IMG/VR virus record: IMGVR_UViG_2617270976_000016 | Location: 1 to 23,498 of that record | Length of the DNA stretch: 23,498 bases | Reading direction: 5' to 3' (one strand) | From: a virus | Taxonomy: Duplodnaviria; Heunggongvirae; Uroviricota; Caudoviricetes | In this document: positions 2,913 through 22,495 of the stretch, piece after piece | Layout of the letters: every line of letters starts with the position of its first letter | How positions within the stretch are numbered: the first letter of the stretch is position 1 | Notes under the pieces: model-generated | Databases searched by the model: none | What the model was told of the DNA's origin: nothing | Seen by the model: the letters and a program-made list of their open reading frames with translations, nothing else | Translations under genes and position numbers: made by a program

Positions 2913-4754
2913 TTATGAAGCCAAAGTTCCGGCAACCTTCCACACTCCACCACCTACATGTATCCATTTATATGGATTTCCTGCAGATGGCGAAGCCAGC
3001 TCCCACCTTGCTCCATTGCCATATTGAGTGACACTCGCATCTGGAGGGTTATCACCATAGACATGAGCAATCCCATTTACTAGATAGCCAGTCGCGGTCC
3101 ATAGCTCAGTTCCCCACACGGAGTATTCTCCACCCTCGCTTACATAATTAAATACAGAAAAACTCCCCCCCCATTTAACTCTTGATGCTGGAGGCATATA
3201 GCATGAAATTAAATTAAGAGTTGTACCACCAACTTGGTAGTATTTACTAGTGTGTGAACCTTCAAATTCAGAAAGTGAAGAATTGTTAAATGATACATTT
3301 GACTGCGTTATTATTATAGCCTCAGCGCCACCATCTTTTACACCAACAGCCCTGAATCCATTAGCTACTATAAAAGATTGATTGACCTCAAATATACTAC
3401 CAGTTACATTCTCTACCGCACACCCATTTAATGTAATCCCAGCACATGACAGGAAAACATATGCAGTTCCATTAACCCTCTCAGGAACGCAGCATGTTAA
3501 TGTGCTATATGTTACGTTATTCATTTTTATGGCGTGGCGAGAGCAGTCTCTAACATAGAGATTATTTATATTAAATGATGTTCCTGCGGTTGCAACAACA
3601 TATCCATCCTGAACATCATGCAACATAAAATTAGATACATTCTGCAACCAACTATCACTGGTATAATACCCTGTCATTCCTCTATAACCATATACATCTT
3701 CAATTCGTGTATTGTAACTAATAGCGCTATATATAATATATTCAGACTTTCCTGTTGCAGTGCATTTTAGACTCAACCCAATTATTCTTGTGCTTCTTGT
3801 TTGTGTTCCGCTTAAATCACCAGCAGTGTCACTATCCATGTCTACCGCAGCGATAAAGTCTTTGGAAAAACTGTGCGCCACACCCTGCCACATGCGATCC
3901 GGAACTGTTTTAATATCGTTACCTGTTTTGATTAATCCACAGGAATCCATACCACAGCCCTCCAGCGTGACACGTGGAGGCACGATAGCGCCATACTTAA
4001 TATCGTAAAATCCATTGAGCCTGAGCGTACCTCCTTCATATAGCAGGCATGCAGTCAGCCGTTCAAAAGCATCACTGTTTTGCTCAGCCGTTCTGGAGGT
4101 CATCATTCCACCGTTCTCTACCGGGATATCAATATGGCTTCCCGTTCGCTTCCAGCGTTTTCCTCCTGCCGTTACAAAGATATTTACTCCATCGTCAGCC
4201 TCTGAACTGGAAAAGGCTATAAACGTTCCTCCACCAAGACCTGGTGTATCAGGGTAATATCCGCGAACTGTTATATTTTGATTTGTGAATGAAGGCTCAA
4301 TAGTTCTTAGTGTCGCAATGTCAGGACAGATACCGATATATTTTTCACCATCTAAGCTGAGTAGATCTCCACGCAATGAAGCATCACCCACGCTAACCCA
4401 CGCACCTAATCCAATCCCACCTGTCGTTTCTGGCGTAGAGCCAGCAGGAACGGTTTTAGGTAATACACCATCCCAACGGTAATACTCGCCAGAGGTTTCG
4501 TCGTGCAATGCCTGATTAGTCAAGGTTATCTCTGCGCCAACCTGAAATGATTTTATTAGTATCCAACCCATTTTTGACAATGATTCTTTGTACTTTGACT
4601 CCATACCATGCCAAGTAAGACGTGGATTACCAAAACGATCAGGCCATAACTCATTGGATTGATCATTAGAAAGATGATCGAAGTTCTGGGCGTTATCGTA
4701 CAAATCTTTTGCAGCAGAAGACCCCAGCGGATTGCCAGTATTATAAGTCGTCAT
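2913..4754 (-). CDS. Tailspike / receptor-binding depolymerase (beta-helix type)
   Basis: 613 aa; Gly/Asn/Thr/Ser-rich repetitive middle typical of right-handed beta-helix tailspikes; last gene of tail module; RBS GAGG upstream of ATG at 4754. Confidence 0.55.
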   Translation of the reverse strand: MTTYNTGNPLGSSAAKDLYDNAQNFDHLSNDQSNELWPDRFGNPRLTWHGMESKYKESLSKMGWILIKSFQVGAEITLTNQALHDETSGEYYRWDGVLPKTVPAGSTPETTGGIGLGAWVSVGDASLRGDLLSLDGEKYIGICPDIATLRTIEPSFTNQNITVRGYYPDTPGLGGGTFIAFSSSEADDGVNIFVTAGGKRWKRTGSHIDIPVENGGMMTSRTAEQNSDAFERLTACLLYEGGTLRLNGFYDIKYGAIVPPRVTLEGCGMDSCGLIKTGNDIKTVPDRMWQGVAHSFSKDFIAAVDMDSDTAGDLSGTQTRSTRIIGLSLKCTATGKSEYIIYSAISYNTRIEDVYGYRGMTGYYTSDSWLQNVSNFMLHDVQDGYVVATAGTSFNINNLYVRDCSRHAIKMNNVTYSTLTCCVPERVNGTAYVFLSCAGITLNGCAVENVTGSIFEVNQSFIVANGFRAVGVKDGGAEAIIITQSNVSFNNSSLSEFEGSHTSKYYQVGGTTLNLISCYMPPASRVKWGGSFSVFNYVSEGGEYSVWGTELWTATGYLVNGIAHVYGDNPPDASVTQYGNGARWELASPSAGNPYKWIHVGGGVWKVAGTLAS

Positions 4755-4765
4755 ATTTGCCTCAT

Positions 4766-4790
4766 AAGAGAAAAACCCGCCGTAGCGGGT
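4766..4790 (-). terminator. Short intrinsic terminator between large tail protein and tailspike
   Basis: Minus strand: hairpin ACCCGC-TACG-GCGGGT followed by TTTTT, immediately upstream of the tailspike RBS. Confidence 0.3.
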
Positions 4791-4806
4791 AATATTGATG
4801 TTTGGA

Positions 4807-7524
4807 TTAAGCTACATTGCCGGGGTAGGTAGCGTTATCGTACTGATAGAAAGTGTCGCGATACTCTTTTGCCGTTACCTGACATGTTCCATCAGATTGC
4901 GGTGCTATCTCTGAAATTAATGCGCTATATCCAACACGGGATGACTCGCAGAAAATCAGACGAGGCGATTCAATGGATGGGGCGTTTAGCATGATATTGC
5001 TGAATTTTGCTTGTTCTATTACTGATAGAACATATTCATTTACCCTTGTAGCTGCCAGCAAATCCGAAGCAGAACCATCCTGATAGCGTATCAATGCACG
5101 TGGGTTGTTGAATGTCCAGTCAAGTGGTTCTGATACTGTAATAGTCGTTACGCCATCACTTGTACTCATATCCTCAATCAACGTGCTTATTGTTTTGCTA
5201 CCAGGAATATCATCCGTGAATACTACCCTGTCGCCAACGTTATAACAGAGAGCATCCATTTCCGTTGTTGTGGTATGAGTCAAACGTTGCTGAAGGTACT
5301 TCATCAGACGTCGCATACCTATCTGATAAGCACGGTCCTGGTCAAGAACACCATCAAGCGTATAGTCCTCAATCTTTACCGGAGTTGGGTTATCTGATGT
5401 TCTGCACTGCACCGTCTCTTCAGCCCATGTAGTGCCGTTGATATATGTAACATCCACACCATCATAGTCATCTGCTGACGGAGCAACGAAAGCAGTCTGA
5501 AGCGGATCAGTCATCTCCTGTGGGCTGATTATTCCAGTCCACGTTTTCACACCTTCCCTTGCTACAGATGCCAGACCATCGGTAAGAAGGAAGTAACTTT
5601 TTCCTGCATTTGTCACCTTCTGAAGCATCTCCAGCGCAGAAACAGAATCCGTAGTGGCATAGTCAAAGAATTCACTGCCAGGGGTCCAGTAAGTAGTTTC
5701 TAGTGAGTCAATAGCTTCACGGTCCATCGCTAGCCCCAACTCATTACCTATATGATACAGAGCACCAGAAATGCTCCTTGACACACCAGAATCATAAACT
5801 CGCGTGGCTACAACGTTTACGCGGCGATCTGACTGCGCTGCCAGTTTACCGCCAGTTTCCACAGTAACCGCAATTGTGGGGACGCCAGTATACGATGCTG
5901 GCCGTGACAACAAACGTCCTCGCAATGACTGCCAGTACATGTTATCGCGACTGTTATTCTGTCCCTGCTCGTTCGTGCGGCGAGCTCTCACCTCTACTAG
6001 CGCAGGCGTATCCAGCGTGATTCTTTCGGTAAATCCCAGTCCGTTAATGTTCTGGAGGTAGTACGATCCGGTTTTACTTATCCACCCGACGCCTGAACCA
6101 TATGGCCGGTACTGAATCTCCCACTTTACCTCACGGTATTGTTTGTTCCCTTTTTTGTTATACCCACAAATCCCGTTTGGGAAGAAGAAGTTTACTTCGA
6201 ACATATCAACAACTTCATTTTCTGGGCACGCCAGAAAAGGTCCCATCCAACTATCGTTCTCATTTAAACCGTTGGCTTCAAAATCAAGAACTGTGCGCGG
6301 TGAAAATCCAGGCCATGACGGATCAACGCTGCCATCAATAACCCGCTCCAGAGTTACAGAGCTACCATCTATATCAAGAATCTTATATTCGCTTCCGGAA
6401 TGGGAAACAGATAGCCTGACATAACCTTCAGGAATCCCGGTGAACGGAGTTCCAGTGGCGCTATCGTAAGCGAGGGTTATTGATGCGGTAATCACATCTT
6501 CGCCGACTGGCTCAGAGTGAGGTATAAAATCAGCAATGAATAGTTGGTAATCAATGCTGTTGTACCAGAGAGTTACAGGCATCCCAACATAAGGAGCTAT
6601 TTCCTCCAGCGTGTCACTGGTAATTCTGCTGTAAGCACCATCATTAGTTACCACATAGGAATCAGGAACAATTAACTCAACAATTGCACCAACAGTCCAT
6701 GTATCTGGAAGATCATTTGTTGTTTCATCTCCATCATCCGTGCTCAGCCCATTAAATGTTATTGTTGGTCCGGAAACGGTTAGCGAATTAGCAACAACAT
6801 CTTCCGTGTCCGGCGCGGTTTGCGCCATATCAAGACCAGAACCAGATGCGGTTCCCCCAACCTCTGTGGAATTGAACCAGTTTTCTGATCGTTGATCTCC
6901 ACTAACGCTTTGCCCGGGTTGATACACTGTGTAGTTAAACCCATCACCAAGAGAAGCAATTGGAGTTGACCCTACACGAATATCGCCATCCCCAAATGAA
7001 AAACGCCCTCTCCCCATAACAACAAACATTTCAACTGTCATTACCGTTGGATCATCAACTGAGAATCTTGTTACAGGCTGCACTGCATAGTCAGGATAAA
7101 TACGGCTTCGTCCAAATAACTCACGTATCGGGTCGCCCAATTTTGCGTTATTCGCTTTAGCAGGATTTACATCAAGAGGGTTTCCCGTTCCTGATGAATA
7201 ACCGCCAAGGTCACCAACACCAGGAGCAAAGAAAAGAGCATACGCGACTGATGCAACTGATACAGCAACGGCAATCCAGGCAAGAGCTACAGCGCCATAA
7301 GGGACAGGGTAAATTCTGACATCACTGTCTGATTTGATAGCAAATTCAAACCATGCCTGAGGCGGTATGTTCTCTCCATCAACATCAACGGTGATCGGGT
7401 GCTTCATATCAGGCTTATAGCCCTGAACGTTCTTCGCAAGCCACTGATGGATAGTTACTGCGCCATGTTCATGAGTTTCGAGTGGCTCGCCAGGCAGCCG
7501 TGAAGGATAAATTCTGATAGTCAC
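4807..7524 (-). CDS. Large tail-tip / host-specificity protein (J-like central fibre protein)
   Basis: About 900 aa directly downstream of the NlpC/P60 tail gene; start placed at GTG 7524 overlapping upstream stop as GTGA; alternative ATG at 7407; predicted hydrophobic helix near N-terminus. Confidence 0.5.
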   Translation of the reverse strand: MTIRIYPSRLPGEPLETHEHGAVTIHQWLAKNVQGYKPDMKHPITVDVDGENIPPQAWFEFAIKSDSDVRIYPVPYGAVALAWIAVAVSVASVAYALFFAPGVGDLGGYSSGTGNPLDVNPAKANNAKLGDPIRELFGRSRIYPDYAVQPVTRFSVDDPTVMTVEMFVVMGRGRFSFGDGDIRVGSTPIASLGDGFNYTVYQPGQSVSGDQRSENWFNSTEVGGTASGSGLDMAQTAPDTEDVVANSLTVSGPTITFNGLSTDDGDETTNDLPDTWTVGAIVELIVPDSYVVTNDGAYSRITSDTLEEIAPYVGMPVTLWYNSIDYQLFIADFIPHSEPVGEDVITASITLAYDSATGTPFTGIPEGYVRLSVSHSGSEYKILDIDGSSVTLERVIDGSVDPSWPGFSPRTVLDFEANGLNENDSWMGPFLACPENEVVDMFEVNFFFPNGICGYNKKGNKQYREVKWEIQYRPYGSGVGWISKTGSYYLQNINGLGFTERITLDTPALVEVRARRTNEQGQNNSRDNMYWQSLRGRLLSRPASYTGVPTIAVTVETGGKLAAQSDRRVNVVATRVYDSGVSRSISGALYHIGNELGLAMDREAIDSLETTYWTPGSEFFDYATTDSVSALEMLQKVTNAGKSYFLLTDGLASVAREGVKTWTGIISPQEMTDPLQTAFVAPSADDYDGVDVTYINGTTWAEETVQCRTSDNPTPVKIEDYTLDGVLDQDRAYQIGMRRLMKYLQQRLTHTTTTEMDALCYNVGDRVVFTDDIPGSKTISTLIEDMSTSDGVTTITVSEPLDWTFNNPRALIRYQDGSASDLLAATRVNEYVLSVIEQAKFSNIMLNAPSIESPRLIFCESSRVGYSALISEIAPQSDGTCQVTAKEYRDTFYQYDNATYPGNVA

Positions 7525-7901
7525 TTCCAGAACTCCACTTTGACAAAACGACGTTTGAAACGCGAGACAGGAAGGAAGGTAACGTTCACTCCTGGGTTGC
7601 ACTCTGCGACATGCAATTGGCCGTTAATTTCAACGACTACACCAACATGAGTAACGGTTGACCCGGAATAACAGGCGGCACCGGCACCTATACACGGCGC
7701 GCATTTTTCCAGAGAAAGCATGAGCTTTCTGGCCTCTCGGTTTAAACCTCCGCCGTCTTTTGTTATACCTGAAAAATCTGGCCACAGTGGTAGCCCCAGG
7801 TCTTTTCGTACCTCGTTCACTATGCCGAAGCAGTCAAGTTCAGGATAAGTGCGACCGCCCTTCTGCCATATGACAGAAAGGTATTTATCAGGATTGAACA
7901 T
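7521..7901 (-). CDS. NlpC/P60 (C40) peptidase-domain tail protein
   Basis: 126 aa; Cys motif (ELDCFG) and downstream His (THVGVVV) typical of NlpC/P60 catalytic residues; position in tail-tip module. Confidence 0.5.
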   Translation of the reverse strand: MFNPDKYLSVIWQKGGRTYPELDCFGIVNEVRKDLGLPLWPDFSGITKDGGGLNREARKLMLSLEKCAPCIGAGAACYSGSTVTHVGVVVEINGQLHVAECNPGVNVTFLPVSRFKRRFVKVEFWK

Positions 7902-7910
7902 TGTTGCTCC

Positions 7911-8393
7911 TTAACTCATGTAACGAAGGCCGGGGTAATACGGGAGGGTGTATCGGTGGCGCGGCCATGCGGTATCAAGAACGTTCATATATCCGGCAGT
8001 AATCTGCGCCTGCATGGATGTCCATGACCCGCTTTTAATCGCCAGCGTGTACGGTACAGATGCCGGAGCACTGAGGTCCGTGGAGACATAGTTACGATAT
8101 GTCAGCGATGCCTCTGAAAGGTTATCCAGAGCATTCCGTATGGCGGTGGAAGTAATCCCGTCTATGTTATCAATGGCAAACTGCAAATCTTGTGTACCAT
8201 CGCTGTTTCTTGCTGGAAGGGCAATATCAATAGCCGCAGCCTGAAAGGTTACCACCACGCCACTTTCGGTTGTTGCGGTGATGTCATCGAAGCCTTTACA
8301 AAGATAATAAACACCAGTACCGATGTTTATTTGCAGGGTTTCGATGATCACCTCTTCCCCGGATGAGGCATACAGCCTATTTAGAATCGTCAT
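7911..8393 (-). CDS. Phage minor tail protein
   Basis: 160 aa; sits between distal tail gene and NlpC/P60 gene; ATGA stop-start overlap with the upstream gene at 8390-8393. Confidence 0.4.
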   Translation of the reverse strand: MTILNRLYASSGEEVIIETLQINIGTGVYYLCKGFDDITATTESGVVVTFQAAAIDIALPARNSDGTQDLQFAIDNIDGITSTAIRNALDNLSEASLTYRNYVSTDLSAPASVPYTLAIKSGSWTSMQAQITAGYMNVLDTAWPRHRYTLPYYPGLRYMS

Positions 8394-8863
8394 GGCTCAG
8401 GCCACTCCCTGTTAAGCGCAATATCAATGATGCTGCTGTTGATAATGTAATCAGGAAAATCAGCCCAGCCAGGAGCCAGAACAGGCCTTTCCCACAATTC
8501 CAACGTGGCCGTGTAGCGCCAGTAGTTTCCGCCTTCAATTGTCGGCCCCTCATAGATATCCACGAAACGACAGACATAAACATCAACAACGCCTAACGGA
8601 GATCGAAGAGGCATGTTAAACCAGTCAGCGCCATCCTTAATGGTGTCCCTGAACCATACCTCAAATAGTTGAGCTTCCGGATCCGTAAGCAGCCATGCAA
8701 CCGAGGCCTGAGTTGGCGTTGAAGTATATAATCTCCTCTGCCTCGCCCTGCCGGATGTGAGTTCGGTTCTCAGTAATGGGCTAACTGGCTTTAACCCGAA
8801 CCCTTCCTGCAATGGAACAGGAAGGTAATCATTCGGATAGTTAATGCTGGTCGTTTTAGCCAT
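8390..8863 (-). CDS. Phage tail protein (distal tail protein-like, immediately after tape measure)
   Basis: 157 aa; start overlaps tape-measure stop as TAATG at 8861-8865. Confidence 0.4.
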   Translation of the reverse strand: MAKTTSINYPNDYLPVPLQEGFGLKPVSPLLRTELTSGRARQRRLYTSTPTQASVAWLLTDPEAQLFEVWFRDTIKDGADWFNMPLRSPLGVVDVYVCRFVDIYEGPTIEGGNYWRYTATLELWERPVLAPGWADFPDYIINSSIIDIALNREWPEP

Positions 8864-10189
8864 TAACCAGTTCTCCTGTTAGTGTTCCAGCGCATCATTG
8901 CTTTCGAAATGTCACCTTTCCCACTGGCAAGGTCGCTGGCTGCCTGTTGATATCCAAGTTTTGCCCCCTCTGCCATGGCTTGCTTCATCATGGAGATCTG
9001 AGTATCAGACGGATCACCGTTAACATTCATGTTAATAACGGGAGAGAAGCTTGCTCCGCTGGTTGATTGTTGATTTACTCTGTCCAGTGTTTCATCAAGC
9101 TTTGCTGACGTCTGAGAGGTCACAACTCGCTCACCTTTCTGGAGCAACCATGTTCCTGTTTCCGGGACGCTATCAATACCATCGTGCGCCATACCTGCCA
9201 GGGCAGAAGTACCAACTGCTGCAACAAGTGGTGCAGTTACTGCCGCAGCTGTTGCCATCGCTGCAGGTGCAAGCGCGGGACCAACGATAGGAATTGCCGC
9301 TGTCGATGCGTATGCTGCGATTTGAGCCTGCAAAGATGATGCCTGTGCGTTTGCCAGCATTGATGCCGCTGCGCTTGCCTGAGTGGATTTACCTACCAGC
9401 AATTGCACTGCCTGATATACCAGCCATTGCGCCGCCATATCAGAAAGGGTTTTAATGATTGTTTCACCAAGACCAGAGAAAATATTACTGAAGAAATCAC
9501 CTAAATCTTCTGCACCGTGCACAAGGTCATTAAGGTTGTCAGAAATAACCGAGGTTGCTCCACCAAGAATAGAAGTCATCGCATCTGCAGCAGTCTGGTA
9601 ATAATCAGCTGATTTATCAGCATAATCATTCAACGAGTCCATTATCCCGCTTTGCCAGTCGCCCATCTGAGCATCAGACTTTTTGTAGTAGTCCTCCTGA
9701 ATATCAAGACGGTCATCAAGCGCCTGCTGTAACGCTGCCGTTTCCTGGTCATAAAGCGATTTGCTTATATCACCACTTTGGTACTGTTTCTGTAGATCTT
9801 GCTGCCTGTCGAGAAAACTACGATGGATATCCAGCAATTCCTTCATGCGCTGGCGAGTCTTGTCTCCCATACCTGCGCCGATAAAATCAGAATCATTAGC
9901 TGCCTGGTCATTCTGATTTTGCTTACGTAAATTAGCGGTAAATTCGACAAGTTTCAGATTTTCTTCGTTGGCTTTTTTAAGTGAGTTGAGGCGATCTATC
10001 TCAGTAGCAAGTTGCTCAAGTCGCTCTTTCTGAGCTGCATTAATTCCTGTTAATTTCCCAGATGTAAAATCAAAACGCAGCTTCTCAAGCTCGGTTAGAG
10101 GCCAAACAGATATCGGAATGGAACGCTGGCATAAACCAGCACAACGAAGTACGCCAGCAATGATATAGCGGGGCGATGTCTTGCCCCTT
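8863..10189 (-). pseudogene. Tail tape-measure protein, 3' remnant (N-terminal part deleted)
   Basis: Ala/Gly-rich hydrophobic C-terminal region typical of tape-measure proteins; frame is open with no start codon from 9870 up to a stop near 10190; first ATG only at 9870; no upstream head or tail-tube genes. Confidence 0.5.
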
Positions 10190-10271
10190 CACGCTGGTAG
10201 AACATCAGGACAAGGACAATGACTGCACAAATACCTGCATTCACCATCGCTGACGGATCACTTGTTACCAT
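10095..10271 (-). CDS. Small two-helix membrane protein (possible holin/antiholin-like)
   Basis: About 58 aa from ATG 10271; two hydrophobic segments; start overlaps the end of the upstream holin-like gene. Confidence 0.3.
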   Translation of the reverse strand: MVTSDPSAMVNAGICAVIVLVLMFYQREGARHRPAISLLAYFVVLVYASVPFRYLFGL

Positions 10272-10653
10272 TGCTGGCCCCTCCTCCACGGAATCGCGAA
10301 AGAATACTGAACAGGCTTCCCAAATCCTGACTGTTGAAAAATGTGAGCACTTTGATTGTCATCGCCGCCACTACAACAGCACCAAGTGCGTCTAATGGTC
10401 TGTCACTATACCCGGTAGCCTGTGACAACTTTGAACCAACCAGGCCAGCAGCAAGAACGCCAACAATGAATGACGTCATGAAGTAAGCAATCAATCGTAC
10501 TCGTGTGATATTTGCCGCTGTCGCTACATAAAATACTGCACCAGCGAATGCGCCAAATACCACGCCATAATCAATACCGGTTGCAAGACCAAATACGCTG
10601 GCTCCCATCAGGCCACCAGCCGCAACCGTAGTGCCAGAAACAGGATCGGACAT
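10258..10653 (-). CDS. Holin-like membrane protein
   Basis: 131 aa from ATG 10653 with strong RBS GAGGGGG; Gly/Ala-rich transmembrane segments; first gene after the Q-proximal cassette. Confidence 0.45.
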   Translation of the reverse strand: MSDPVSGTTVAAGGLMGASVFGLATGIDYGVVFGAFAGAVFYVATAANITRVRLIAYFMTSFIVGVLAAGLVGSKLSQATGYSDRPLDALGAVVVAAMTIKVLTFFNSQDLGSLFSILSRFRGGGASNGNK

Positions 10654-10695
10654 TAAGCCCCCTCTTATTGCTGTGAGTCCTCTCAAAACGAGGGG

Positions 10696-10730
10696 ATAAA
10701 AAAAGCCACTTTAATGTGGCTTATGTTTTT
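10696..10730. terminator. Intrinsic terminator downstream of the orphan membrane-protein gene
   Basis: Hairpin AAGCCAC-TTTAAT-GTGGCTT with A-run before and T-run after, so it can act on either strand. Confidence 0.45.
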
Positions 10731-10746
10731 GAATAAATTTTGAAAA

Positions 10747-11352
10747 TTAGTCATTAAGATATTTATTAGCGTCTGATATAAAACCAGAATATCTTCCTGT
10801 CCAGCCCATAGAATTCTCCATAGTGGATATATGTTTCTTTATTATTGTGGAAAGATAAGTGTGAATATCATTTATTGATTTCTTAAAGGCACACCCTTTT
10901 TCGTCTTCAAGTATTGATATCAGCAAACTTACTTTATATTTTTCTAGTTCAAGTAATGCATCCGACATTTTCTTTTCAATATCAGGACGTGTAAAGCTGT
11001 AACCAATGCGGCCTTCTCTAAGCCATTCGGTATGCAACTCATGAACTTTTGTGAGCTGGTAAGCATATTCACTGACATTAATTCTTACATGGGCAGCATA
11101 GTTTCTCTTGTCTTCCCTGCTTTGCTGATATCTAACCGATTCGTTATTTTGGCGTATAACATATAAAGAGATGAGAGCAGGAACCAAACCGCTTATAAAA
11201 GCAGCTATAATAGTTTCCCATGAAAATGAGGAGTCTACTGAAACTGTCGCAATTTTATCAATACTTATCGTGTCTGCTACACGTTCTTTCACATAAAGAA
11301 ATGGTATGCCTAACCACATATTGAGACCTTTATTATTTAAAAAGGCCATCAT
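10747..11352 (-). CDS. Hypothetical membrane-anchored protein (moron; no family recognised)
   Basis: 201 aa from tandem ATG ATG at 11352-11347; one predicted TM helix (WETIIAAFISGLVPALISLYVI) then helical soluble domain; markedly AT-rich; bracketed by terminators. Confidence 0.5.
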   Translation of the reverse strand: MMAFLNNKGLNMWLGIPFLYVKERVADTISIDKIATVSVDSSFSWETIIAAFISGLVPALISLYVIRQNNESVRYQQSREDKRNYAAHVRINVSEYAYQLTKVHELHTEWLREGRIGYSFTRPDIEKKMSDALLELEKYKVSLLISILEDEKGCAFKKSINDIHTYLSTIIKKHISTMENSMGWTGRYSGFISDANKYLND

Positions 11353-11386
11353 AACAAAAACCCGCACAATGGCGGGTTTCTTTTTT
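11353..11386. terminator. tR-prime-like intrinsic terminator immediately downstream of the Q gene
   Basis: Hairpin CCCGC-loop-GCGGG flanked by T-runs on both strands; the minus-strand T-run ends at the ATG of the next gene. Confidence 0.5.
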
Positions 11387-11428
11387 GTTCTGTTGCTCAG
11401 TTCGCTTTAACGTCCCGAGCCTACCACA

Positions 11429-11457
11429 ATTTAAGCACTTTCTTGCTCACCCTGCAA
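11429..11457 (-). promoter_or_regulatory. Candidate late promoter PR-prime (-35 TTGCAG, 17-bp spacer, -10 TTAAAT overlapping the Q stop codon)
   Basis: Hexamers read on minus strand; predicted transcript of roughly 60-70 nt ends at the terminator at 11353-11386. Confidence 0.35.
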
Positions 11458-12009
11458 CTTAAATCTGTCGCTATTTGTGCCGAATGCGTCACAAACTGGA
11501 GCGTACAGGATCGATTCTGCCAGACTTAGCCAAGTGTCAATGCGTCGACGACAGGTAATCAGCGGCCAGTCAGAATGTTTAGCCTGCAATTCATTGGCCA
11601 TCTGCAACTTGCTTTTACGTAGGCGATGGCGATCGACAATCACGCTATAGAGCGATCGGTAGTCATCATTCATCAGTACAGAAGCAATCACACCGTCCAC
11701 TAACAGCCCTTCTTCGTCTGAACAGAACGCCAGGCCGCTTTTATTTTTGCTGTTGAGGATTTCACGCAGGTACACTTCAAGTTCTGGTTTGCTGATACCC
11801 GCTTTCTTCATCCGGCGTAGCGCTTCGTTAATTGCCGTTTTGGTGATTTTCCCGGATGCCAGAAGCTGGTTAAACATGTTCCCACCACTACCACCGCCGA
11901 TATAAGACCAGCGGCCCCACATGCGCAACTTACCCTGTATCCAGATGCTTTCCAGAGTACGAAGACGAACCATTTCACCAGATTTACCAACTTCAGAAGG
12001 ATTAATCAT
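11431..12009 (-). CDS. Late-gene antitermination protein Q-like
   Basis: 192 aa; W-G-R-W motif region (LRMWGRWSY) resembling Q-family antiterminators; sits between nin-like genes and the lysis module; RBS GGAGA. Confidence 0.55.
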   Translation of the reverse strand: MINPSEVGKSGEMVRLRTLESIWIQGKLRMWGRWSYIGGGSGGNMFNQLLASGKITKTAINEALRRMKKAGISKPELEVYLREILNSKNKSGLAFCSDEEGLLVDGVIASVLMNDDYRSLYSVIVDRHRLRKSKLQMANELQAKHSDWPLITCRRRIDTWLSLAESILYAPVCDAFGTNSDRFKLQGEQESA

Positions 12010-12023
12010 TTAGCGTTCTCCAC

Positions 12024-13013
12024 TTACGCCAGTACGCCGATTGCCAGCGCACGATCTATAACCCGAAACACCAGGACCAGCTGGTCACCGTATTTCGCTT
12101 CAAATGCCACAGGATCAGCATGCAACTCGTCGTGATGCTCTCTGCACAGAGGAATCACAAACAGGTCGTGTGCCTTTGTACCCATTCCACCCTGCCCGTG
12201 GCCAATCAGATGGTGGGGGTCGTCAGCTTGCTTGTTACAGCAGACACACGGCTGGGACTTAACCCATCTCGTGTATTTCTCATTTACCCAGCGACGACGC
12301 TTGGGTTTAAGCATGAAGGATTCCGGCGTCTCCGGGTCTACCTTCATTGCCACTATCTTTTTCGCTTTCTCCTGTACCAGTTGTTGAGCGGGTAATGTCG
12401 GAACAATATCGCTTTCACGTGTTACCGACTGGTTAGTCTCTTCCTTCAGACGAAGGGCTTTATAGGCTACGGCTTCAGGTATCTCGTCAGCCAGGTCGTT
12501 CCTTACCATCCACCAGCAAAACTCCGGCAGCGTAAGAACGTGGTCTTCATTGAAGCCTAATTGACCGTTTACGACCTTCAGAAGCCAGGATACCAGGTTT
12601 TGGCGGGCAATACCCGCCAGACCTTCAGTGAACTGCTCACGAATTTTTAAGTCACAGCCCCAGCACGTGCGGATTGAGCCAGGCGCATGTCGGGTGATGG
12701 TGTAGTTGCGATCGTGCCACTCGCTATGTGGGTACTGACATTCCAGTTTTCTTTCGAGCCATGCATCCAATGAATTGAGGCCACCAGCACGATGTATTAC
12801 CTTCTGATTTTCGAAGACATCACGCATTAGCGGATCGTTCTGAAGCTCCTGAGTAGTCTCAGGCAGCATACCAGAAGGTAACTCAGCCATTGACTCTGCC
12901 TGTGGCTCTATAAGGACACGTCCACGTCTGAACAGATGCATCAGTTCACTGCCTGGGCGAAATATCACTACCCCGGTCATGGGTGCCACTTCAGGTGTCA
13001 GTAGTACCCTCAC
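12024..13013 (-). CDS. DUF968-like phage protein with C-terminal Cys/His cluster
   Basis: 329 aa; C-terminal CVCC…HH…H…C…HH pattern; GTG start at 13013 overlaps upstream stop as GTGA (alternative ATG at 12980). Confidence 0.45.
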   Translation of the reverse strand: MRVLLTPEVAPMTGVVIFRPGSELMHLFRRGRVLIEPQAESMAELPSGMLPETTQELQNDPLMRDVFENQKVIHRAGGLNSLDAWLERKLECQYPHSEWHDRNYTITRHAPGSIRTCWGCDLKIREQFTEGLAGIARQNLVSWLLKVVNGQLGFNEDHVLTLPEFCWWMVRNDLADEIPEAVAYKALRLKEETNQSVTRESDIVPTLPAQQLVQEKAKKIVAMKVDPETPESFMLKPKRRRWVNEKYTRWVKSQPCVCCNKQADDPHHLIGHGQGGMGTKAHDLFVIPLCREHHDELHADPVAFEAKYGDQLVLVFRVIDRALAIGVLA

Positions 13014-13735
13014 GCTATCTGCCCCTTAGCAATATGCTCTGCCCACAGGCCACCAATCCAGCGAACACCCTTGGCGGTGAAGCGGGACTGATTGAATGCG
13101 TAATTTGTCTGGTTTGTCGTGCCCGTCTTCACCTCGAAGCGCCCTGCTTCGATATGTTTGCTCTTTGGTGTGAGAACACGGTTAAGCCGGTACATGATGC
13201 CGTTCTCAATCAGGAACATCGCAAACTCTGGCTCTTTGGCATTAAGCAGCTTTGCAACCTGTCGGAATGTCATTGAACCAGTCGCCGTCACATAACGATC
13301 GACGAACTCAGCTTTCGGCGCGGCTACTGCCAGTTCTTCACTCAGGCGCTGTTTCTGTTCTGCCAGATCAGCAGCAAGGCGCAGGGCCTCGGGAAGTGAC
13401 CGGGGGACAATCATTCCACCGTTGCTCTCCAGTTCCTGCCAGCGGTCAACAAGTCGGGCGGTAAACTCCGGCGATAACTGGGCAACGATCACATAGCTGT
13501 CTCGTTTGTTCACTTCGTAGTGATGGTAGGTCTGCCCGTTCTGGGGATGGGTGTACTGCAATGCAGCATACCCTCCAATCACACCGGAATTCATAAGGCG
13601 CTCTATCGTTACGCAGACATTGCTATGCCGGGAATCAACCAGTTTCGCAATCTCACGGCTGGACATAGTGATCTGCTGCCCTACCGTTGCTGCATGATGG
13701 GTCGGACACGTTACTGTTATGCTCATCTGTTGCAT
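13010..13735 (-). CDS. Phage regulatory protein Rha / KilAC-domain antirepressor-like
   Basis: N-terminal Rha-like motif (MSSREIAKLVDSRHSNV) and C-terminal KilAC-like segment; start set at ATG 13735 with RBS GGAGA, downstream of the rusA stop. Confidence 0.55.
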   Translation of the reverse strand: MQQMSITVTCPTHHAATVGQQITMSSREIAKLVDSRHSNVCVTIERLMNSGVIGGYAALQYTHPQNGQTYHHYEVNKRDSYVIVAQLSPEFTARLVDRWQELESNGGMIVPRSLPEALRLAADLAEQKQRLSEELAVAAPKAEFVDRYVTATGSMTFRQVAKLLNAKEPEFAMFLIENGIMYRLNRVLTPKSKHIEAGRFEVKTGTTNQTNYAFNQSRFTAKGVRWIGGLWAEHIAKGQIA

Positions 13736-13751
13736 GCTCTGTCTCCACTTA

Positions 13752-14141
13752 TCAGGCGGCTGCACCCGCCACGGTTTCAAATCGGCTGATCGTTATCTCT
13801 ACCCTTCCAGGCTTTACTACAGGCCCCCATTCGATTGCCATCCGTTTAACCTGACTGTCGTCTTCCCAGACTCTGGCATTCGTCAGTGCGTCGAACAGCG
13901 CTTTGTTGTAATTGTCCAGATCCCGCCGTCTGTTATCTGGCGGGAAAAGAACTATGTTTACCTCAACGTTGACGTTAACTGGTTTAGGTATACCGCCGTA
14001 CTGCTCAACAACAGATGCGTAAACGTTCTTCTTGAATTTCCTACCCATCTCACTGATCAGATGCTTACCCTTTAACGCTCCACGGTCAGGTGACCGGTAA
14101 TAGGTGTTAACTGTTGGCGGGAATGGCAGCGTTAATTTCAT
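13752..14141 (-). CDS. rusA: RusA-family Holliday-junction resolvase
   Basis: 129 aa from ATG 14141; motifs LTLPFPPTVNTYY and RRRDLDNYNKALFDALT match RusA; ATGA overlap with upstream ORF. Confidence 0.8.
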   Translation of the reverse strand: MKLTLPFPPTVNTYYRSPDRGALKGKHLISEMGRKFKKNVYASVVEQYGGIPKPVNVNVEVNIVLFPPDNRRRDLDNYNKALFDALTNARVWEDDSQVKRMAIEWGPVVKPGRVEITISRFETVAGAAA

Positions 14142-14428
14142 TGCTGAACACCCCTCGCTTCCAGCCATGACAAGGCGCGTTCTCTTGAATCACTCTCACC
14201 GTTAATGAGTGACTTGATGATCGATATCGCGTCTGCCTCATCATTTCCTGAAATAACGGTGATCCCCCTGGAAACTCCAGGTGCTACTGAGATATATCCC
14301 TTCTTCGCTATATAACCCGTTGAGTTTCTGGCTCCCACCGGATAACCCTGACTGGGACGCCGTAGCTGTCTTTGAACCGTCTGTTGAGTGCTCGCATTCG
14401 ACCTTCTCCACCTGGCCGTTGAAATCAC
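14138..14428 (-). CDS. Hypothetical nin-region protein (possibly 3' part of a frameshifted gene)
   Basis: 96-aa frame whose stop overlaps the rusA start as ATGA; only its C-terminal half looks protein-like. Confidence 0.3.
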   Translation of the reverse strand: MISTARWRRSNASTQQTVQRQLRRPSQGYPVGARNSTGYIAKKGYISVAPGVSRGITVISGNDEADAISIIKSLINGESDSRERALSWLEARGVQQ

Positions 14429-14576
14429 CTACAACCCAATCGGCAAACTGGTAGCAGACAGGCTCAAAGCATCCGGATACCATTACCCCATACACGAACT
14501 GCGCCGGACCTTTTCCACCCGGCATAGGTCGAGCAATAAGTTGCGACCTGCGGTACTGTGTTGTTACACTGTTCAT
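14241..14576 (-). CDS. Hypothetical nin-region protein (possibly 5' part of a frameshifted gene)
   Basis: 111-aa ORF with RBS GGAGA; overlaps the next ORF by about 190 nt in a different frame. Confidence 0.3.
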   Translation of the reverse strand: MNSVTTQYRRSQLIARPMPGGKGPAQFVYGVMVSGCFEPVCYQFADWVVGDFNGQVEKVECEHSTDGSKTATASQSGLSGGSQKLNGLYSEEGIYLSSTWSFQGDHRYFRK

Positions 14577-14637
14577 GCGTTAGTTTCTCCACTGAATACG
14601 ACACGCCACGACGCCAGGAGCTGCACACTCGCTGGCG

Positions 14638-15102
14638 TCACTTCTTTTGACGGCGGCTGAATAAGGCCACAATCGCGCGGATCTCTTCTTCACGTGCTGC
14701 CAAATGACGGCGGTGATGTTCCTGAATCTCTTCGGCTTCATGCTTTTCAATCACTCCATCCTCAAGCGCCTTCTGGATAATCTGATCAACCTGACCTCTT
14801 GCAGCTGCTGTACGCATTGCTCGACTGAACAAGTCAACACGGTCAAGATCTTCCAGGCTTGGTACATCCACCAGCAGCGCACCGCGACGCTTAGCAAAGT
14901 AGTCAGCAACGAATGACGTGTTGGAAATGTCTTCCATCGCTTCCAACTCGGTGACTTCAAAGAAACGACAACCGTTTTTCTCGTAAAGGTTGTTGTTGAA
15001 TTGGGTTTCTGACATGCCCAACGCACCAGCCATAGCTTGACGGCCTCCTGGGTACGCCTTACACATCGCTTTCACTACTTCTTTCAAAGTTTGCTCTACC
15101 AT
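14638..15102 (-). CDS. CII-like / YdaT-like phage regulatory protein
   Basis: 154 aa from ATG 15102 with RBS AAGGA; immediately downstream of cro-like gene, the usual position of cII; charged helical C-terminus. Confidence 0.4.
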   Translation of the reverse strand: MVEQTLKEVVKAMCKAYPGGRQAMAGALGMSETQFNNNLYEKNGCRFFEVTELEAMEDISNTSFVADYFAKRRGALLVDVPSLEDLDRVDLFSRAMRTAAARGQVDQIIQKALEDGVIEKHEAEEIQEHHRRHLAAREEEIRAIVALFSRRQKK

Positions 15103-15127
15103 CTTGTTTTTCCTTTGGTAGTTATGT

Positions 15128-15325
15128 TTAAGCTGCTGTGTCTGTAGACTTTTGGTAAAGGCTGGCATCGTATTTAAGCTTGCCTTTAGTGATACGTTCG
15201 ATAACAAAAGCTTGCTTCTGAGGGATCACATCACCCCATCTGCACACTGCAGGATGGGAAATTCCCAAAACACTCGCGGTTTTTGATACCCCTCCGAAGT
15301 GTTCTATGACGTCAGTTTTAAGCAT
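15128..15325 (-). CDS. Cro-like (YdaS-like) HTH repressor
   Basis: 65 aa; HTH segment (SKTASVLGISHPAVCRW); divergent from cI across an operator-rich intergenic region; RBS GGAGG. Confidence 0.7.
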   Translation of the reverse strand: MLKTDVIEHFGGVSKTASVLGISHPAVCRWGDVIPQKQAFVIERITKGKLKYDASLYQKSTDTAA

Positions 15326-15417: not shown

Positions 15418-16077
15418 ATGAAAACAGAGATGAAAGACCGAATAAGATCCCGGCGAGTCCAGCTCGATATAACTCAGCAGACCCTGGCTAAACGCCTTGG
15501 GGTGAGTAGAGTGTCCGTTACCAAATGGGAGAACGGTACAACTAAGCCTGACGGAGAAAACCTTCACCAACTAGCGATGGCTTTACAGACCACTCCTGAA
15601 TGGATTCTTTACGGCAAGGGTGATGAGACTCAAGATGACACCAAAGTTATCCCATACCTGAAGCCACCTACCGCCGTTCCTATTATCTCTGCTGTTCAGG
15701 CCGGGGTATGGACTGATACCTATGCATGCTCAAGGCTTACTGATGTGATTTCATGGACTCAAACCACAGCAAACGTTTCTGATGAAGTTTTCGGATTGGT
15801 GGTTCGTGGTGAGTCAATGACTAACCCACATGGACTTCCATCAATTCCGGAGGGCTCAATCGTTATTGTTGAGCCACATTACGGACAACTTGATGACCTG
15901 TATGGGAAAATTGTCGTAGCAATACTTGATGGTTCAGCAGAAGCGACTGTGAAGAAACTTGTTTGGGATAGCCCTTACTCATATCTCATGCCGCTTAATC
16001 CCGCCTTTAAGCCGATCCCCATTGATGGCAATTGCCGCATTGTAGGAAAAGTTGTTCAGATAACGCAGAACATCTAA
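15418..16077 (+). CDS. CI-type prophage repressor (N-terminal HTH, C-terminal LexA-like S24 peptidase domain)
   Basis: 219 aa; HTH (QQTLAKRLGVSRVSVTKWENG) and S24-like C-terminus (GESM…, VVKK…) read from translation. Confidence 0.85.
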   Translation: MKTEMKDRIRSRRVQLDITQQTLAKRLGVSRVSVTKWENGTTKPDGENLHQLAMALQTTPEWILYGKGDETQDDTKVIPYLKPPTAVPIISAVQAGVWTDTYACSRLTDVISWTQTTANVSDEVFGLVVRGESMTNPHGLPSIPEGSIVIVEPHYGQLDDLYGKIVVAILDGSAEATVKKLVWDSPYSYLMPLNPAFKPIPIDGNCRIVGKVVQITQNI

Positions 16078-16281: not shown

Positions 16282-16709
16282 AGGGAGCATAAGGCGGTCG
16301 CGGTAAGCATCTCGCAGGGTTCTTACCGGGACTGGAAGAGTTACCACTTGGAGACGGTCCTTTTAAATGTCCTGGACAGTGGCGCTTTGGTCGCGATAAC
16401 AACCACTCCAGTTGATCCTGGGAGTTATCAGGTCAGTGAGATGCCAGCACTCTCGACGGCAGTGACAGCCGGAAGTAGACGGCGCAGCCCAGACGATATC
16501 TGAGTGGCTATAAAAACAGATGGACGTCGGTGGAATCCCGACAAATGGGTTTCATGTACCGAATGAACACATGATGACGCGGGGAAAGAACCGTGACAGG
16601 AGGGAAGTAGACCCCGCGAACACAACAGGTAAGAGCATTTGTATGTTGGCTGTGATTGTTAAGTCTATCGCAACGCCAAGATTGAAAATAATGCAGTGCT
16701 CTTACCGTT

Positions 16710-16786
16710 GTGGCATTAGCTCAGTTGGATAGAGCAACGGCCTTCTAAGCCGTGGGGCGCAGGTTCGAATCCTGCATGCTGCACCA
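16710..16786 (+). tRNA. Phage-borne tRNA-Arg, anticodon UCU
   Basis: Cloverleaf traced by hand: D-stem GCTC/GAGC, anticodon stem ACGGC/GCCGT with loop CTTCTAA, T-stem GCAGG/CCTGC with TTCGAAT loop, 3' ACCA; acceptor stem has two G-U pairs. Confidence 0.8.
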
Positions 16787-16840
16787 GAATCACGTAGCCA
16801 GTGTGGTACCAGGAAGTAAGAAAGCTGTGTGGAGTCTTGG

Positions 16841-16884
16841 CGGTACCAGTACCAACCTTTGAAGTCCCTGGTACCGCCCTTTTT
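16841..16884 (+). terminator. Hairpin plus T-run downstream of tRNA-Arg (probable terminator)
   Basis: 9-bp stem GGCGGTACC/GGTACCGCC followed by CTTTTT; palindromic GGTACC occurs three times in 16805-16875. Confidence 0.35.
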
Positions 16885-16885
16885 A

Positions 16886-16968
16886 CTCAACTGAAAGCGC
16901 GTTCTGTCCCTTGTCATTAAGTGCCAGGTCGTTAAATCCAAAACCAGCGGAACGCGCTTTCAATTGAG
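16886..16968. repeat. 19-bp imperfect inverted repeat around a 45-bp spacer
   Basis: CTCAACTGAAAGCGCGTTC (16886-16904) pairs with GAACGCGCTTTCAATTGAG (16950-16968), one mismatch. Confidence 0.6.
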
Positions 16969-17116
16969 TGGAGAAACTAACCGGCGATTGCAGTCGCCCG
17001 TTTCACTAAGTGCCTCTTCATGGGGCATTTACTGAAACGAAACCAAAACTTTTATTCGCCTTTTGGCGAGGGATTCGTGCAACCAAAATTCAGCGGATTT
17101 TTCCACTGGAGGACTA

Positions 17117-17272
17117 ATGAACCACCTCGAATTTATTGAGAAGAACGTAAGGGAAATCCTTATTAAACAAGGTTTTTCCTCTTCAGTGGCTCAGGGGGGG
17201 CATGGCAAGCACTTGATTTATATAAGCGAATGTCACAAGCCAGTAAAAAAGGCGCGATTTTTGACGATGTGA
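17117..17272 (+). CDS. Small hypothetical protein (51 aa)
   Basis: ATG at 17117 preceded by GGAGG (short 4-nt spacing); no family recognised. Confidence 0.25.
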   Translation: MNHLEFIEKNVREILIKQGFSSSVAQGGHGKHLIYISECHKPVKKARFLTM

Positions 17273-17429
17273 TGAGGCATGCAAAAGCCTGGGCAGATAA
17301 GCAGGTTTCAAAGTCCGAAGTCACAAAAAGAAAACGTGCCCAACCTAAAGACCAAGGTGGCCTCTTTTAAGTATCAAGGCCAAAGAATTCAGCGCCGTGC
17401 AGGGCGCATAAAACACGGAGAAACTAACC

Positions 17430-17912
17430 ATGACGACCACACAGAATGTCACTGAGTTACAACCACGTATGACCAGAGAGCAACTGATCGATGCAGCGCG
17501 TAAAGCCGCCCCTCTCCTTCCGGTTGCTTACCGCGGGATCATGACCGAACTGGCTAACCGTCTTGATATCGTCAGCGTGGCGCTTTGCGAGTCAATGGAA
17601 CAGCGTAAAGCACTGGCCATCGAGAACACCGTTTTACGAGACGATGTTAATTGTTGGGCCAAAGAGTGCGACCGCATCGTTGAACGTCATACCAAATCGC
17701 CGACCAATATGCACATGCTGGAGGCGCAGAGAGAATTACGCGAGCTAACTCCAGTAACCGATCAGGTTATTCGCGATATCCAGGCCACTGGCGTGGAAAA
17801 GTACGCAAACGTCACTATTGCCATAGGGAAAGAAGAGCAAGAAGAAAGCATTGTTTACGCTGGTAATCAGGCTCTGTTATTCGCTAACCAACTTCGTGAA
17901 GGTACTGCGTAA
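17430..17912 (+). CDS. Hypothetical early protein (first gene of early operon)
   Basis: 160 aa; RBS GGAGA; stop overlaps next start as TAATG. Confidence 0.4.
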   Translation: MTTTQNVTELQPRMTREQLIDAARKAAPLLPVAYRGIMTELANRLDIVSVALCESMEQRKALAIENTVLRDDVNCWAKECDRIVERHTKSPTNMHMLEAQRELRELTPVTDQVIRDIQATGVEKYANVTIAIGKEEQEESIVYAGNQALLFANQLREGTA

Positions 17913-18952
17913 TGGCCGCCAACTCATTCAAACAGATGTCCCGTGACGGGACCATCAAGCGCACCGATACCGGGATGTTTATTAGCCTTGAACATATCCA
18001 CGTGCGTGAAGGTTTCAACAAGCGTGAAGACGACGAACGCACACGCCAGGCAGATGACGAACTGTTTAACTATCTGATGAACGGCGGTACCGTTCCTCCA
18101 CTGGAGGTTATCGCACGCGATGAAGGCGGTGTGTGGGTTGTTGAGGGTCACCGCCGTCGCCGTTGCTATGCGCGTTGTGCTGAAGCAGGTAAGCCAGTAG
18201 ACCGCATTCATATCATGCCTTTCAACGGTAACGATGTGCAGCGTCTGGCTCGCATCATGACCAGTAATAACCAACTCCCCCTTTCCGATATTGAACAGGC
18301 TGCTGTTATTCAGGAGCTTCATAATGCTTTCAACCAGACCACCAGCGAGATTGCAAAGCTGGTCAATAAGTCTGTAGCGACCGTTGAGAAGTTGCTCACT
18401 CTGAGCACCGCTAATTATGACGTTCAGCAGGAAGTTAAATCTGGTGCCGTATCTGTTGATGTTGCTGTTGACCGCGTTCGCGAGTTTGGCGAACAAGCTG
18501 GTGAGGTTCTCCAGCACGATAAAGCCGTAGCCGCCGCCCAGGGAAAAACAAAGGTTACGCGCAGTTCTATCGCGCCTGAACTCAACATTAAAAGTGCTCG
18601 CCGTTTTGTGGAGTTAATGGCCATGGCGACGATTAGCGATGAAGGCGTGTTCACTTTGCAAGGCACGGCACTGGCTGAAGCTCTGGCGATCATCGACGAA
18701 CATAAAACCATTGCTGAAGCTCGCGAAACCTATCGCCTTTCACAGCCAATCCCTACTACAGAAATTATCGGGAAGGTGCTGTATGTGAAGCTGGACGGTA
18801 AGGAAATCGGCTCGGCAATAATTTATCGCGGTAAGAACGTCACGCTCGACCTAGGTGATAGAAAAATAATCGCCAGCCAGTCAAAAGCAGTGGCCCACTT
18901 CGTTAAACAACACAAACTTCAGCAGGTACATACCAATGCAAACGATCAATAA
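17912..18952 (+). CDS. ParB/Srx-like nuclease-domain protein
   Basis: 346 aa; N-terminal ParB-like motif region (VVEGHRRRRCYA); translationally coupled to neighbours. Confidence 0.5.
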   Translation: MAANSFKQMSRDGTIKRTDTGMFISLEHIHVREGFNKREDDERTRQADDELFNYLMNGGTVPPLEVIARDEGGVWVVEGHRRRRCYARCAEAGKPVDRIHIMPFNGNDVQRLARIMTSNNQLPLSDIEQAAVIQELHNAFNQTTSEIAKLVNKSVATVEKLLTLSTANYDVQQEVKSGAVSVDVAVDRVREFGEQAGEVLQHDKAVAAAQGKTKVTRSSIAPELNIKSARRFVELMAMATISDEGVFTLQGTALAEALAIIDEHKTIAEARETYRLSQPIPTTEIIGKVLYVKLDGKEIGSAIIYRGKNVTLDLGDRKIIASQSKAVAHFVKQHKLQQVHTNANDQ

Positions 18953-20741: not shown

Positions 20742-20827
20742 TGCCGCCAGTTAAAGTGGTTGTTATTACCGTGGTGATGCTAGCGATCTGCCAGTTAGTT
20801 TCTATGACGGGATATGGCATATGGTGA
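20741..20827 (+). CDS. Possible 28-aa hydrophobic peptide (MPPVKVVVITVVMLAICQLVSMTGYGIW)
   Basis: ATG overlaps upstream stop (TGATG) and its own stop overlaps the next ATG; single TM-like segment; not in the ORF track because it is too short. Confidence 0.25.
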   Translation: MPPVKVVVITVVMLAICQLVSMTGYGIW

Positions 20828-21099: not shown

Positions 21100-21132
21100 C
21101 CGGGTGCAGCCGGTTTAAGTGGAGAACTAACT

Positions 21133-22419: not shown

Positions 22420-22455
22420 AGTACAAAAACAAAAAAACCACCCGTAGGTGGTTTC
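22420..22455 (-). terminator. Intrinsic terminator downstream of leuZ (end of the tRNA operon)
   Basis: Minus strand: hairpin AACCACC-TACG-GGTGGTT followed by TTTTTTTGTTTTTG. Confidence 0.55.
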
Positions 22456-22495
22456 ACGACACTGCTTATTGCTTTGATTATTCTGTTCTTTCCCA

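Follow-up and report, generated by a model that had tools for sequence, protein, structure and literature searches.

The window analyzed here (the whole stretch of 23,498 nucleotides held as IMG/VR record IMGVR_UViG_2617270976_000016) comes from Escherichia coli 2-316-03_S4_C2 and covers most of a prophage integrated at tRNA-Leu, between pgsA and yecA. On its minus strand, two holin genes run directly into the 3' part of a tape-measure gene, which is followed by genes for the distal tail. Comparison with intact relatives leaves little doubt that the element is a lambdoid prophage of the type combining an HK97-type head module with a lambda-type tail tip, and that it is now defective, having been left headless by one illegitimate joining of the second holin gene to the tape-measure gene.

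The holin and tape-measure genes at the junction

The first holin gene (holin-1, 10258–10653, minus strand) is intact and encodes a 131-aa protein assigned to Phage_holin_8 by Pfam and PHROG searches. The second (holin-2, 10095–10271, minus strand, KDY19403.1) belongs to Phage_holin_3_7 according to Pfam and PHROG, and comparison with relatives shows it truncated to 58 of its 93 codons. Its 58-aa product matches only positions 1–48 of the 80 in the Phage_holin_3_7 profile and positions 3–56 of the 92 in PHROG 217, and its TAA stop codon (10097–10095) is formed across the junction with the tape-measure gene. Holin-2 is a pseudogene. Three Logan contigs (P0017, P0019, and P0021) carry 1-base deletions in CCAGG after the holin-2 breakpoint, giving frameshifted holins. 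Since CCAGG is a Dcm site, miscalled bases may account for them rather than real mutations, and the three contigs were left out of the breakpoint counts given below.

The tape-measure gene is represented by a single minus-strand frame of 441 codons, open from 10188 to the stop at 8863–8865 according to the open reading frame (ORF) listing and its translation. An earlier reading of the window without database searches (the sequence-only reading) had described this frame as lacking a start codon from the first ATG at 9870 up to about 10190, and the listing bears this out: no in-frame ATG, GTG, or TTG is found in the 106 codons between 10188 and that ATG. Within this open stretch, 9871–10095 is tape-measure sequence, but at 10096–10188 BLAST and translation identify holin-2 sequence read out of frame. 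These 31 codons are open by chance, which is why the frame appeared to extend to about 10190. The true remnant (8863–10095, minus strand; BLAST, Pfam, PHROG) comprises 410 codons plus the stop and has no start codon of its own. It corresponds to residues 432–841 of the 841-aa tape measure of intact relatives and is 99.4% identical over 1233 nt (411 codons including the stop) to that of the E. coli TST3 prophage. It matches the C-terminal lambda-type domain Tape_meas_lam_C (PF09718, E 1.8e-9) and positions 448–853 of the 855 in PHROG 2854 (tail length tape measure, E 7e-143), i.e. the C-terminal half only. With 410 of 841 residues left, the N-terminal half, which sets tail length, is missing, and the TAC and T chaperone genes (G/GT-like) that normally precede the tape measure were not found in the window by comparison with TST3.

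The first in-frame ATG (9868–9870, minus strand) is an internal methionine codon of the full-length protein, which would yield a 335-aa product (KDY19402.1) and is preceded by only a weak AGG 2–4 nt upstream. The tape-measure remnant, without its own start codon, is a pseudogene. In a JGI contig (3300039817, L021, 3596–6144), the tape measure is split into ORFs of 471 aa and 335 aa within a tail module that is otherwise complete, and the second ORF begins at the same internal methionine as the 335-aa ORF called in the window. A 335-aa call is therefore not by itself a sign of deletion, and a tape measure of this length in a JGI contig (P0013) was rejected as a deletion case, since its gene is split in an otherwise complete tail module.

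Two intact prophages at the same pgsA-tRNA locus, those of E. coli TST3 (NZ_CP154406.1, about 43.3 kb, pgsA-tRNA-Leu/yecA) and GDSC2BY4G (NZ_CP136025.1), share with the window the integration site, the integrase, and the excisionase-like gene. They also share a common order, DUF968, DUF1133, holin-1, holin-2, and, further on, tape measure, 157-aa protein, DUF1833, NlpC-like protein, and TipJ, with 95–99% identity over the shared late genes. Both encode an 841-aa tape measure, and in each a complete set of head, tail, and lysis genes separates holin-2 from the tape-measure gene; the head module of GDSC2BY4G differs from that of TST3, in the same order. An intact relative with this gene order and a short tape measure was looked for, and none was found.

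Aligning the window with intact relatives, as the sequence-only reading had proposed, places the breakpoint at 10095/10096 with an ambiguity of 0–2 nt. Positions 4363–10095 correspond to 16454–22196 of the TST3 sequence (L001) at 95.2% identity, and positions 10096–10696 to 37852–38452 at 98.5% (BLAST). A megablast search of window positions 7900–11400 against 5,426 complete E. coli genomes showed an equally sharp switch of homology, the tail-side matches stopping at query position 2196 and the holin-side matches starting at 2197. The earlier proposal of a deletion junction is thus upheld, with a position five bases below the 10.1–10.2 kb range it had given. At the junction (10094–10098), the minus strand reads GGCCTC-TA-ACCGAG, where TA is 10096–10097, and the sequence carries GGCCTCTAACCGAG. 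The native holin-2 sequence at the breakpoint is GGCCTCTA|CCAGGAG and that of the tape-measure gene is CAGGTN|ACCGAG, with GTA in 7 of 12 relatives, so that the TA is attributable to either parent. Microhomology amounts to 0–2 nt and there is no filler. Codon 58 of holin-2 abuts codon 432 of the tape measure, whose part begins precisely at a codon boundary.

The block missing between these points measures 15,655 bp relative to TST3 and 15,218 bp relative to GDSC2BY4G, and includes 21 whole genes in TST3 terms. From the holin side, it holds the last 35 codons of holin-2, the GH19 endolysin gene, seven small or accessory genes, the HNH endonuclease gene, the small and large terminase genes, the portal and major capsid genes, five head-completion or connector genes, the tail tube gene, the TAC and T chaperone genes, and the first 431 codons of the tape measure. 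In agreement with the earlier reading, profile searches detected no endolysin, terminase, portal, capsid, or tube gene between the holins and the tape-measure remnant; nor did they detect any head, terminase, tube, or endolysin gene elsewhere in the window. By analogy with HK97-like phages, in which cos lies next to HNH and terS, cos would also have been lost with the HNH/terminase segment. A single homology-independent recombination event, using at most the dinucleotide TA, would have discarded these 15.2–15.7 kb.

In intact relatives and in unselected collections, both partner genes are continuous. The tape-measure frame extends upstream past the breakpoint in 12 relatives, and the holin-2 anchor is followed by native sequence in 37 of 37 IMG/VR viral contigs and in 10 of 10 metagenome contigs. 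These scans returned intact genes only (47 of 47) and serve as a baseline, not as an unbiased count of truncations. Native continuation in all 47 unselected contigs indicates that the truncation is a rare, strain-level event. The exact junction was not found in a scan of one genome per species, and the tape-measure-end anchor hit a single locus in that collection, which is too sparse for strain-level events. A literature search on the assembly and run accessions returned nothing.

Retained modules and a second deletion

The sequence-only reading had held that immunity, integration, tail-tip, and moron genes were kept, and each was found. Downstream of the tape-measure remnant, on the minus strand, lie genes for a 157-aa structural protein (8390–8863), a DUF1833 protein (7911–8393), a 126-aa NlpC/CHAP-like minor tail protein (7521–7901), and the 905-aa TipJ (4807–7524), all of the same length as in TST3. 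The 126-aa protein (19622–20002 in the TST3 sequence) is called a 'nitrite transporter' in the RefSeq annotation of relatives, which looks like a propagated misannotation. A moron (888–2849) encodes a 653-aa fusion of an AT3 acyltransferase with an SGNH domain, which is probably an O-antigen acetylase. In TST3, gtrA, gtrB, and the glucosyltransferase gene (gtrABC) stand in this position, and the adjoining tailspike gene differs too.

Profile searches identified, on the plus strand, a cI-like repressor with helix-turn-helix (HTH) and peptidase S24 domains (15418–16077) and a DUF4224 excisionase-like gene with a tyrosine integrase gene (21133–22370). The prophage also carries a tRNA-Arg(tct) gene (16710–16786), flanked by the repressor gene and the early-left genes. 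Sequence comparison places the attachment-site repeat, which includes tRNA-Leu(taa), at 22429–22582 on the minus strand; it spans from the tRNA-Leu anticodon loop to past the tRNA end. In the right flank, tRNA-Leu(taa) is followed by the host genes tRNA-Cys, tRNA-Gly, and pgsA, and this flank is 99% identical to E. coli. The window thus holds what is expected of a lambdoid prophage: an integrase, an excisionase-like gene, a repressor, and a tRNA attachment site. Profile searches also identified the gene for a DUF1133/antiterminator-Q-like late regulator (11431–12009, minus strand), upstream of the lysis remnant, and that for the Holliday-junction resolvase RusA (13752–14141, minus strand). Further genes encode ParB-like, Cro-like, and CII-like proteins, a dATP/dGTP pyrophosphohydrolase, a KilAC/Rha antirepressor, a DUF968 protein, the tailspike, and DinI. 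At the left end, E. coli relatives annotate an S24-peptidase gene near DinI; the window ORF at 1–246 itself matched nothing in Pfam. A 206-aa ORF of unknown function (10747–11367) in the classic position of a moron, with the Q-like gene on one side and the holins on the other, matches PHROG 18859 and no Pfam family; at the same spot, TST3 carries an IS5-like insertion sequence (ISKpn26) and other ORFs.

Relative to TST3 and GDSC2BY4G, the window lacks, in addition to the 15.2–15.7 kb, a 2.5-kb replication module, and its immunity region and tailspike differ. It carries the acyltransferase moron and no IS5-like insertion, whereas TST3 carries gtrABC. The replication module was lost by a separate deletion, so that the earlier claim of one deletion is sustained for the head and proximal tail region, where comparison with both relatives reveals a single clean junction, and does not extend to the element as a whole. 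Positions 11402–14311 of the window correspond to 16001–13092 of a second TST3 sequence (L003) and positions 14309–15159 to its positions 10623–9773, placing the second junction at 14309–14311, with TAT microhomology. About 2.47 kb are missing here relative to TST3, comprising most of the DUF4222 gene, the gene for the Phg_2220_C replication protein, a 147-aa hypothetical gene, the MT-A70 methylase gene, a 72-aa hypothetical gene, and the 5' part of a LexA-family gene. The first 29 or so codons of the DUF4222 gene are now fused to the second half of the LexA-family gene (14138–14576), and the fused 96-aa ORF (14138–14428) matches only positions 50–105 of the 106 in the repressor family PHROG 362. 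With Phg_2220_C and its neighbors gone, the replication initiator expected of a particle-forming prophage is absent, and this small second deletion, which would have taken it out, makes the prophage multiply defective.

Judged by its gene content, the element would no longer replicate, package DNA, build tails, or lyse its host, would still repress and express the O-antigen acyltransferase, and probably still excises. Such deletions would survive because the functions that kill the host on induction are gone.

Cryptic prophages of E. coli K-12 offer a familiar parallel. Rac, DLP12, and Qin are defective and have kept integrase, regulatory, part of the lysis, and tail-fibre-proximal genes together with morons after internal deletions; Rac carries a tape-measure pseudogene as well. 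The K-12 elements are old and heavily decayed, whereas the retained genes of the window are full length and 95–99% identical to those of intact phages, so that the event is recent and its junction still resolvable at single-nucleotide level.

Other remnants and alternative origins of the junction

Searches for the truncated products led to further remnants in which the same positions had been broken. Exact look-up of the 58-aa holin fragment retrieved a Logan contig (ERR12370701, L007) with a distinct remnant, 92–98% identical to the window by region and carrying further deletions of its own. Its holin-2 gene is cut, at 5265/5266 of L007, in the same place as that of the window and joined 700 bp further into the tape-measure gene (GGCCTC-TA-GGTAAATCC), of which about 177 codons are kept (called ORF, 165 aa). 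The 90%-identity cluster of the holin fragment yielded an otherwise unrelated lambda-like prophage (L018) that has nothing but the lysis cassette in common with the window. Its loss of 728 bp starts at the holin-2 position used in the window and extends to the end of the endolysin gene, with CTA microhomology at the breakpoint (8174–8176 of L018). Through the tape-measure cluster, a Citrobacter freundii remnant (JAOCII01, L017) was found in which an early DUF551 gene is joined at the same tape-measure nucleotide as in the window (9984–9986 of L017; ...GACCAT-TA-ACCGAG). This remnant can hardly descend from the window form, since it comes from another genus and the element would not be packageable. 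The holin-2 breakpoint is thus used in three junctions (the window, L007, and L018) and the tape-measure breakpoint in two (the window and L017). Exact and cluster look-ups are biased to identical products, but this bias alone would require hundreds of independent deletions ending in the 280-nt holin-2 gene, and no deletion ending in holin-2 was found among the 47 unselected contigs or in 24 E. coli genomes carrying holin-2. In two further C. freundii assemblies (GCA_054191025.1 and GCA_054190985.1; L008 and L009), contigs of 158 kb and 41 kb, respectively, stop exactly at the holin-2 breakpoint (...GGCCTCT), which suggests a branch in the assembly graph that could stem from another junction or from an intact copy beside a deleted one.

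Other remnants have decayed along different lines. That of E. coli Z142-3 (NZ_CP159694.1, L016, 5406–11805) is independent and has kept its capsid genes; one of its two deletions runs from the HK97-gp10 gene to the tape measure, leaving 554 aa, and the other from the GH19 endolysin gene to the portal gene, with a 7-nt filler. A Citrobacter portucalensis remnant (CP043009, L020) has lost its integrase as well. In E. coli PSJ-29, a P22-like remnant at argW (L081, 6500–12200) shows at least 3 internal deletions (DUF551 to portal; within the coat gene; gp4 to an ejection protein). The remnants of Z142-3, L007, L017, and L020, which belong to the phage family of the window, resemble it in keeping the 3' part of the tape measure and the distal tail genes, and differ from it in partner breakpoints and in the extent of loss.

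Serial decay of this kind raises the question of whether the block was lost in two or more nested steps, later events having erased the earlier junctions. The two separate deletions of Z142-3 in the same block, the shared holin-2 end of L007 with 700 bp less tape measure, and the second deletion elsewhere in the window itself all point in this direction. However, a lone junction devoid of both filler and leftover pieces is most economically explained by a single event, and a nested history seems unlikely.

A selected, functional element in need of the tail-tip genes and half a tape measure, such as a helper-dependent satellite or a tailocin-like particle, is a much more remote prospect. It is true that five independent remnants (the window, L007, L017, L020, and Z142-3) have each held on to the moron and the tailspike as well as the distal tail genes and the tape-measure 3' end, and that the retained tail genes are full length. 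Nevertheless, the tape-measure fragment has no start codon, and no tube, chaperone, terminase, or head gene is present; the cos region expected next to HNH and terS falls inside the deletion. No satellite marker genes of the P4 or PICI type were seen among the profile matches of the window. A tailocin would be expected to have a tube (with or without a sheath), a complete tape measure, and lysis genes but no head genes; here the tube, chaperone, and endolysin genes and the 5' half of the tape measure are missing. A particle-forming prophage would need genes for terminase, portal, major capsid, tail tube, and endolysin, all of which lie in the missing segment. Retention is explained equally well by deletions that spread from the lethal lysis or replication genes and stop before the selected, O-antigen-modifying moron.

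An assembly artefact, either a chimeric join or a collapsed repeat, would be conceivable in a short-read draft assembly, but is highly improbable here: the junction is 100% identical in the NCBI contig JNQT01000015.1 (110 kb), in the Logan contig assembled independently from SRR1186598, and in a 1.9-kb contig of another run (ERR11525607). Two assemblers thus agree on the SRR1186598 reads, and the junction lies inside the 110-kb contig with no flanking repeat. Lastly, it is barely credible that a distinct, functional phage or mosaic variant would naturally have a short tape measure beside its holins, high as the mosaicism of lambdoid phages is (the immunity region, tailspike, and moron of the window differ from those of TST3 by replacement), because the remnant begins mid-domain and runs for 106 codons before any start codon, only 58 of the 93 holin-2 codons are left, both genes continue in all intact relatives, and no head, terminase, tube, or endolysin gene is present in the window. 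The truncation is neither a natural variant nor an artefact.

Some points nonetheless weigh against a single illegitimate deletion of the block as described. No intact genome is the direct ancestor of the element, TST3 being 95% identical in the tail region and 98.5% in the holin genes, so that how much was lost, and which genes exactly, can only be estimated. A single event cannot be proven against several nested events with one surviving junction, and the presumed loss of particle formation and of cos is read from gene content.

A candidate TA^CC signature at the breakpoints

The deletion scar by itself is an ordinary, textbook step in prophage domestication. The sole part that is surprising to a specialist is the reuse of breakpoints together with a signature shared by several of them. 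With sites written as retained^deleted, the holin-2 site reads CTCTA^CCAGGAG and the tape-measure site, at codon 431/432 and on the other strand, GGTTA^CCTGCTG. The tape-measure site of L007 is ACCTA^CCAGCAA, the right side of the second deletion in the window is TATA^CCTGCGC, and one side of a Z142-3 deletion is GTTTA^CCTGCG. Five of 14 mapped sites are in register with TACCWG (post hoc binomial P about 1e-9), a motif that occurs 76 times in the 43.3-kb TST3 prophage on both strands, or at 0.088% of oriented positions. A test set of 7 sites, mapped afterwards and not examined beforehand, comprised the DUF551 side of the L017 junction and the PSJ-29 sites, determined against phages Sf101 and Bas106. 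TA^CC was found at 3 of these 7 (P about 5e-4 to 1e-3). The L017 site reads CATTA^CCGGAA, and three PSJ-29 sites read AATTA^CCGGCG, CTTTAA^CCTGAA, and AATTA^CCATTC; the motif is absent from the remaining three sites in PSJ-29. Altogether, TA^CC is present at 8 of 24 breakpoints in the window, L007, L016, L017, L018, L020, and L081 (P about 1e-7), five of them reading TA^CCWG, and the signature thus rests on about two dozen junctions. The ...TA-3' side is in most cases preserved to its last nucleotide, and the microhomology is always located at the extreme 3' end of that side. Where both sites carry the signature, the two retained ends finish in TA-3' on opposite strands, TA being self-complementary.

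It is possible, although doubtful at present, that breakpoints in enterobacterial lambdoid and P22-like remnants are non-random and fall at TA^CC, often TA^CCWG, as a result of sequence-specific cutting by RusA or another nuclease. The RusA resolvase prefers to cleave 5' of a CC dinucleotide at the junction crossover (PMC1636454), and it is encoded by both the window and L018. The evidence is circumstantial and RusA is only a candidate for the source of the breaks: CC alone adjoins about 10% of positions, and a preference for it would predict a much weaker enrichment than that seen. Under such a mechanism, branched DNA formed during abortive induction would be cut 5' of CC by RusA or some other nuclease, with sites such as CTCTACCAGG and GGTTACCTGC as candidate RusA breaks. 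Two ...TA-3' ends would then be joined through the self-complementary TA, and the survivors would be those without lysis or replication genes.

Several other sources of the breaks were considered. Deletion mediated by insertion sequences (IS) was rejected, as no IS or IS end is present at any junction, and so was cleavage of the IS608 type (TTAC^), since the C is never kept. Integrase acting at secondary sites was rejected because the att repeat is unlike the breakpoint motif. EcoRII or Dcm/Vsr gives only a partial fit: apart from the holin-2 site, a single site has the full CCWGG, and one C would be kept after a Vsr nick. Neither E. coli topoisomerase I, with its motif TCNTT^A (PMC9352719), nor gyrase, which cleaves before G (PMC6379681), fits the sites. 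A literature search on CCWGG-linked illegitimate recombination retrieved nothing relevant.

For the prophage itself, the main use of these results is correct annotation, with the tape-measure and holin-2 genes treated as pseudogenes and the prophage as one that induction would not bring to form particles. What has gone are the functions for killing and for making particles; immunity, integration, and a surface-modifying gene have been kept. Should a systematic survey bear out TA^CC, the decay of prophages would be set in part by their sequence and perhaps by an enzyme of the phage, and, if true, this would amount to a specific molecular pathway for disarming prophages.

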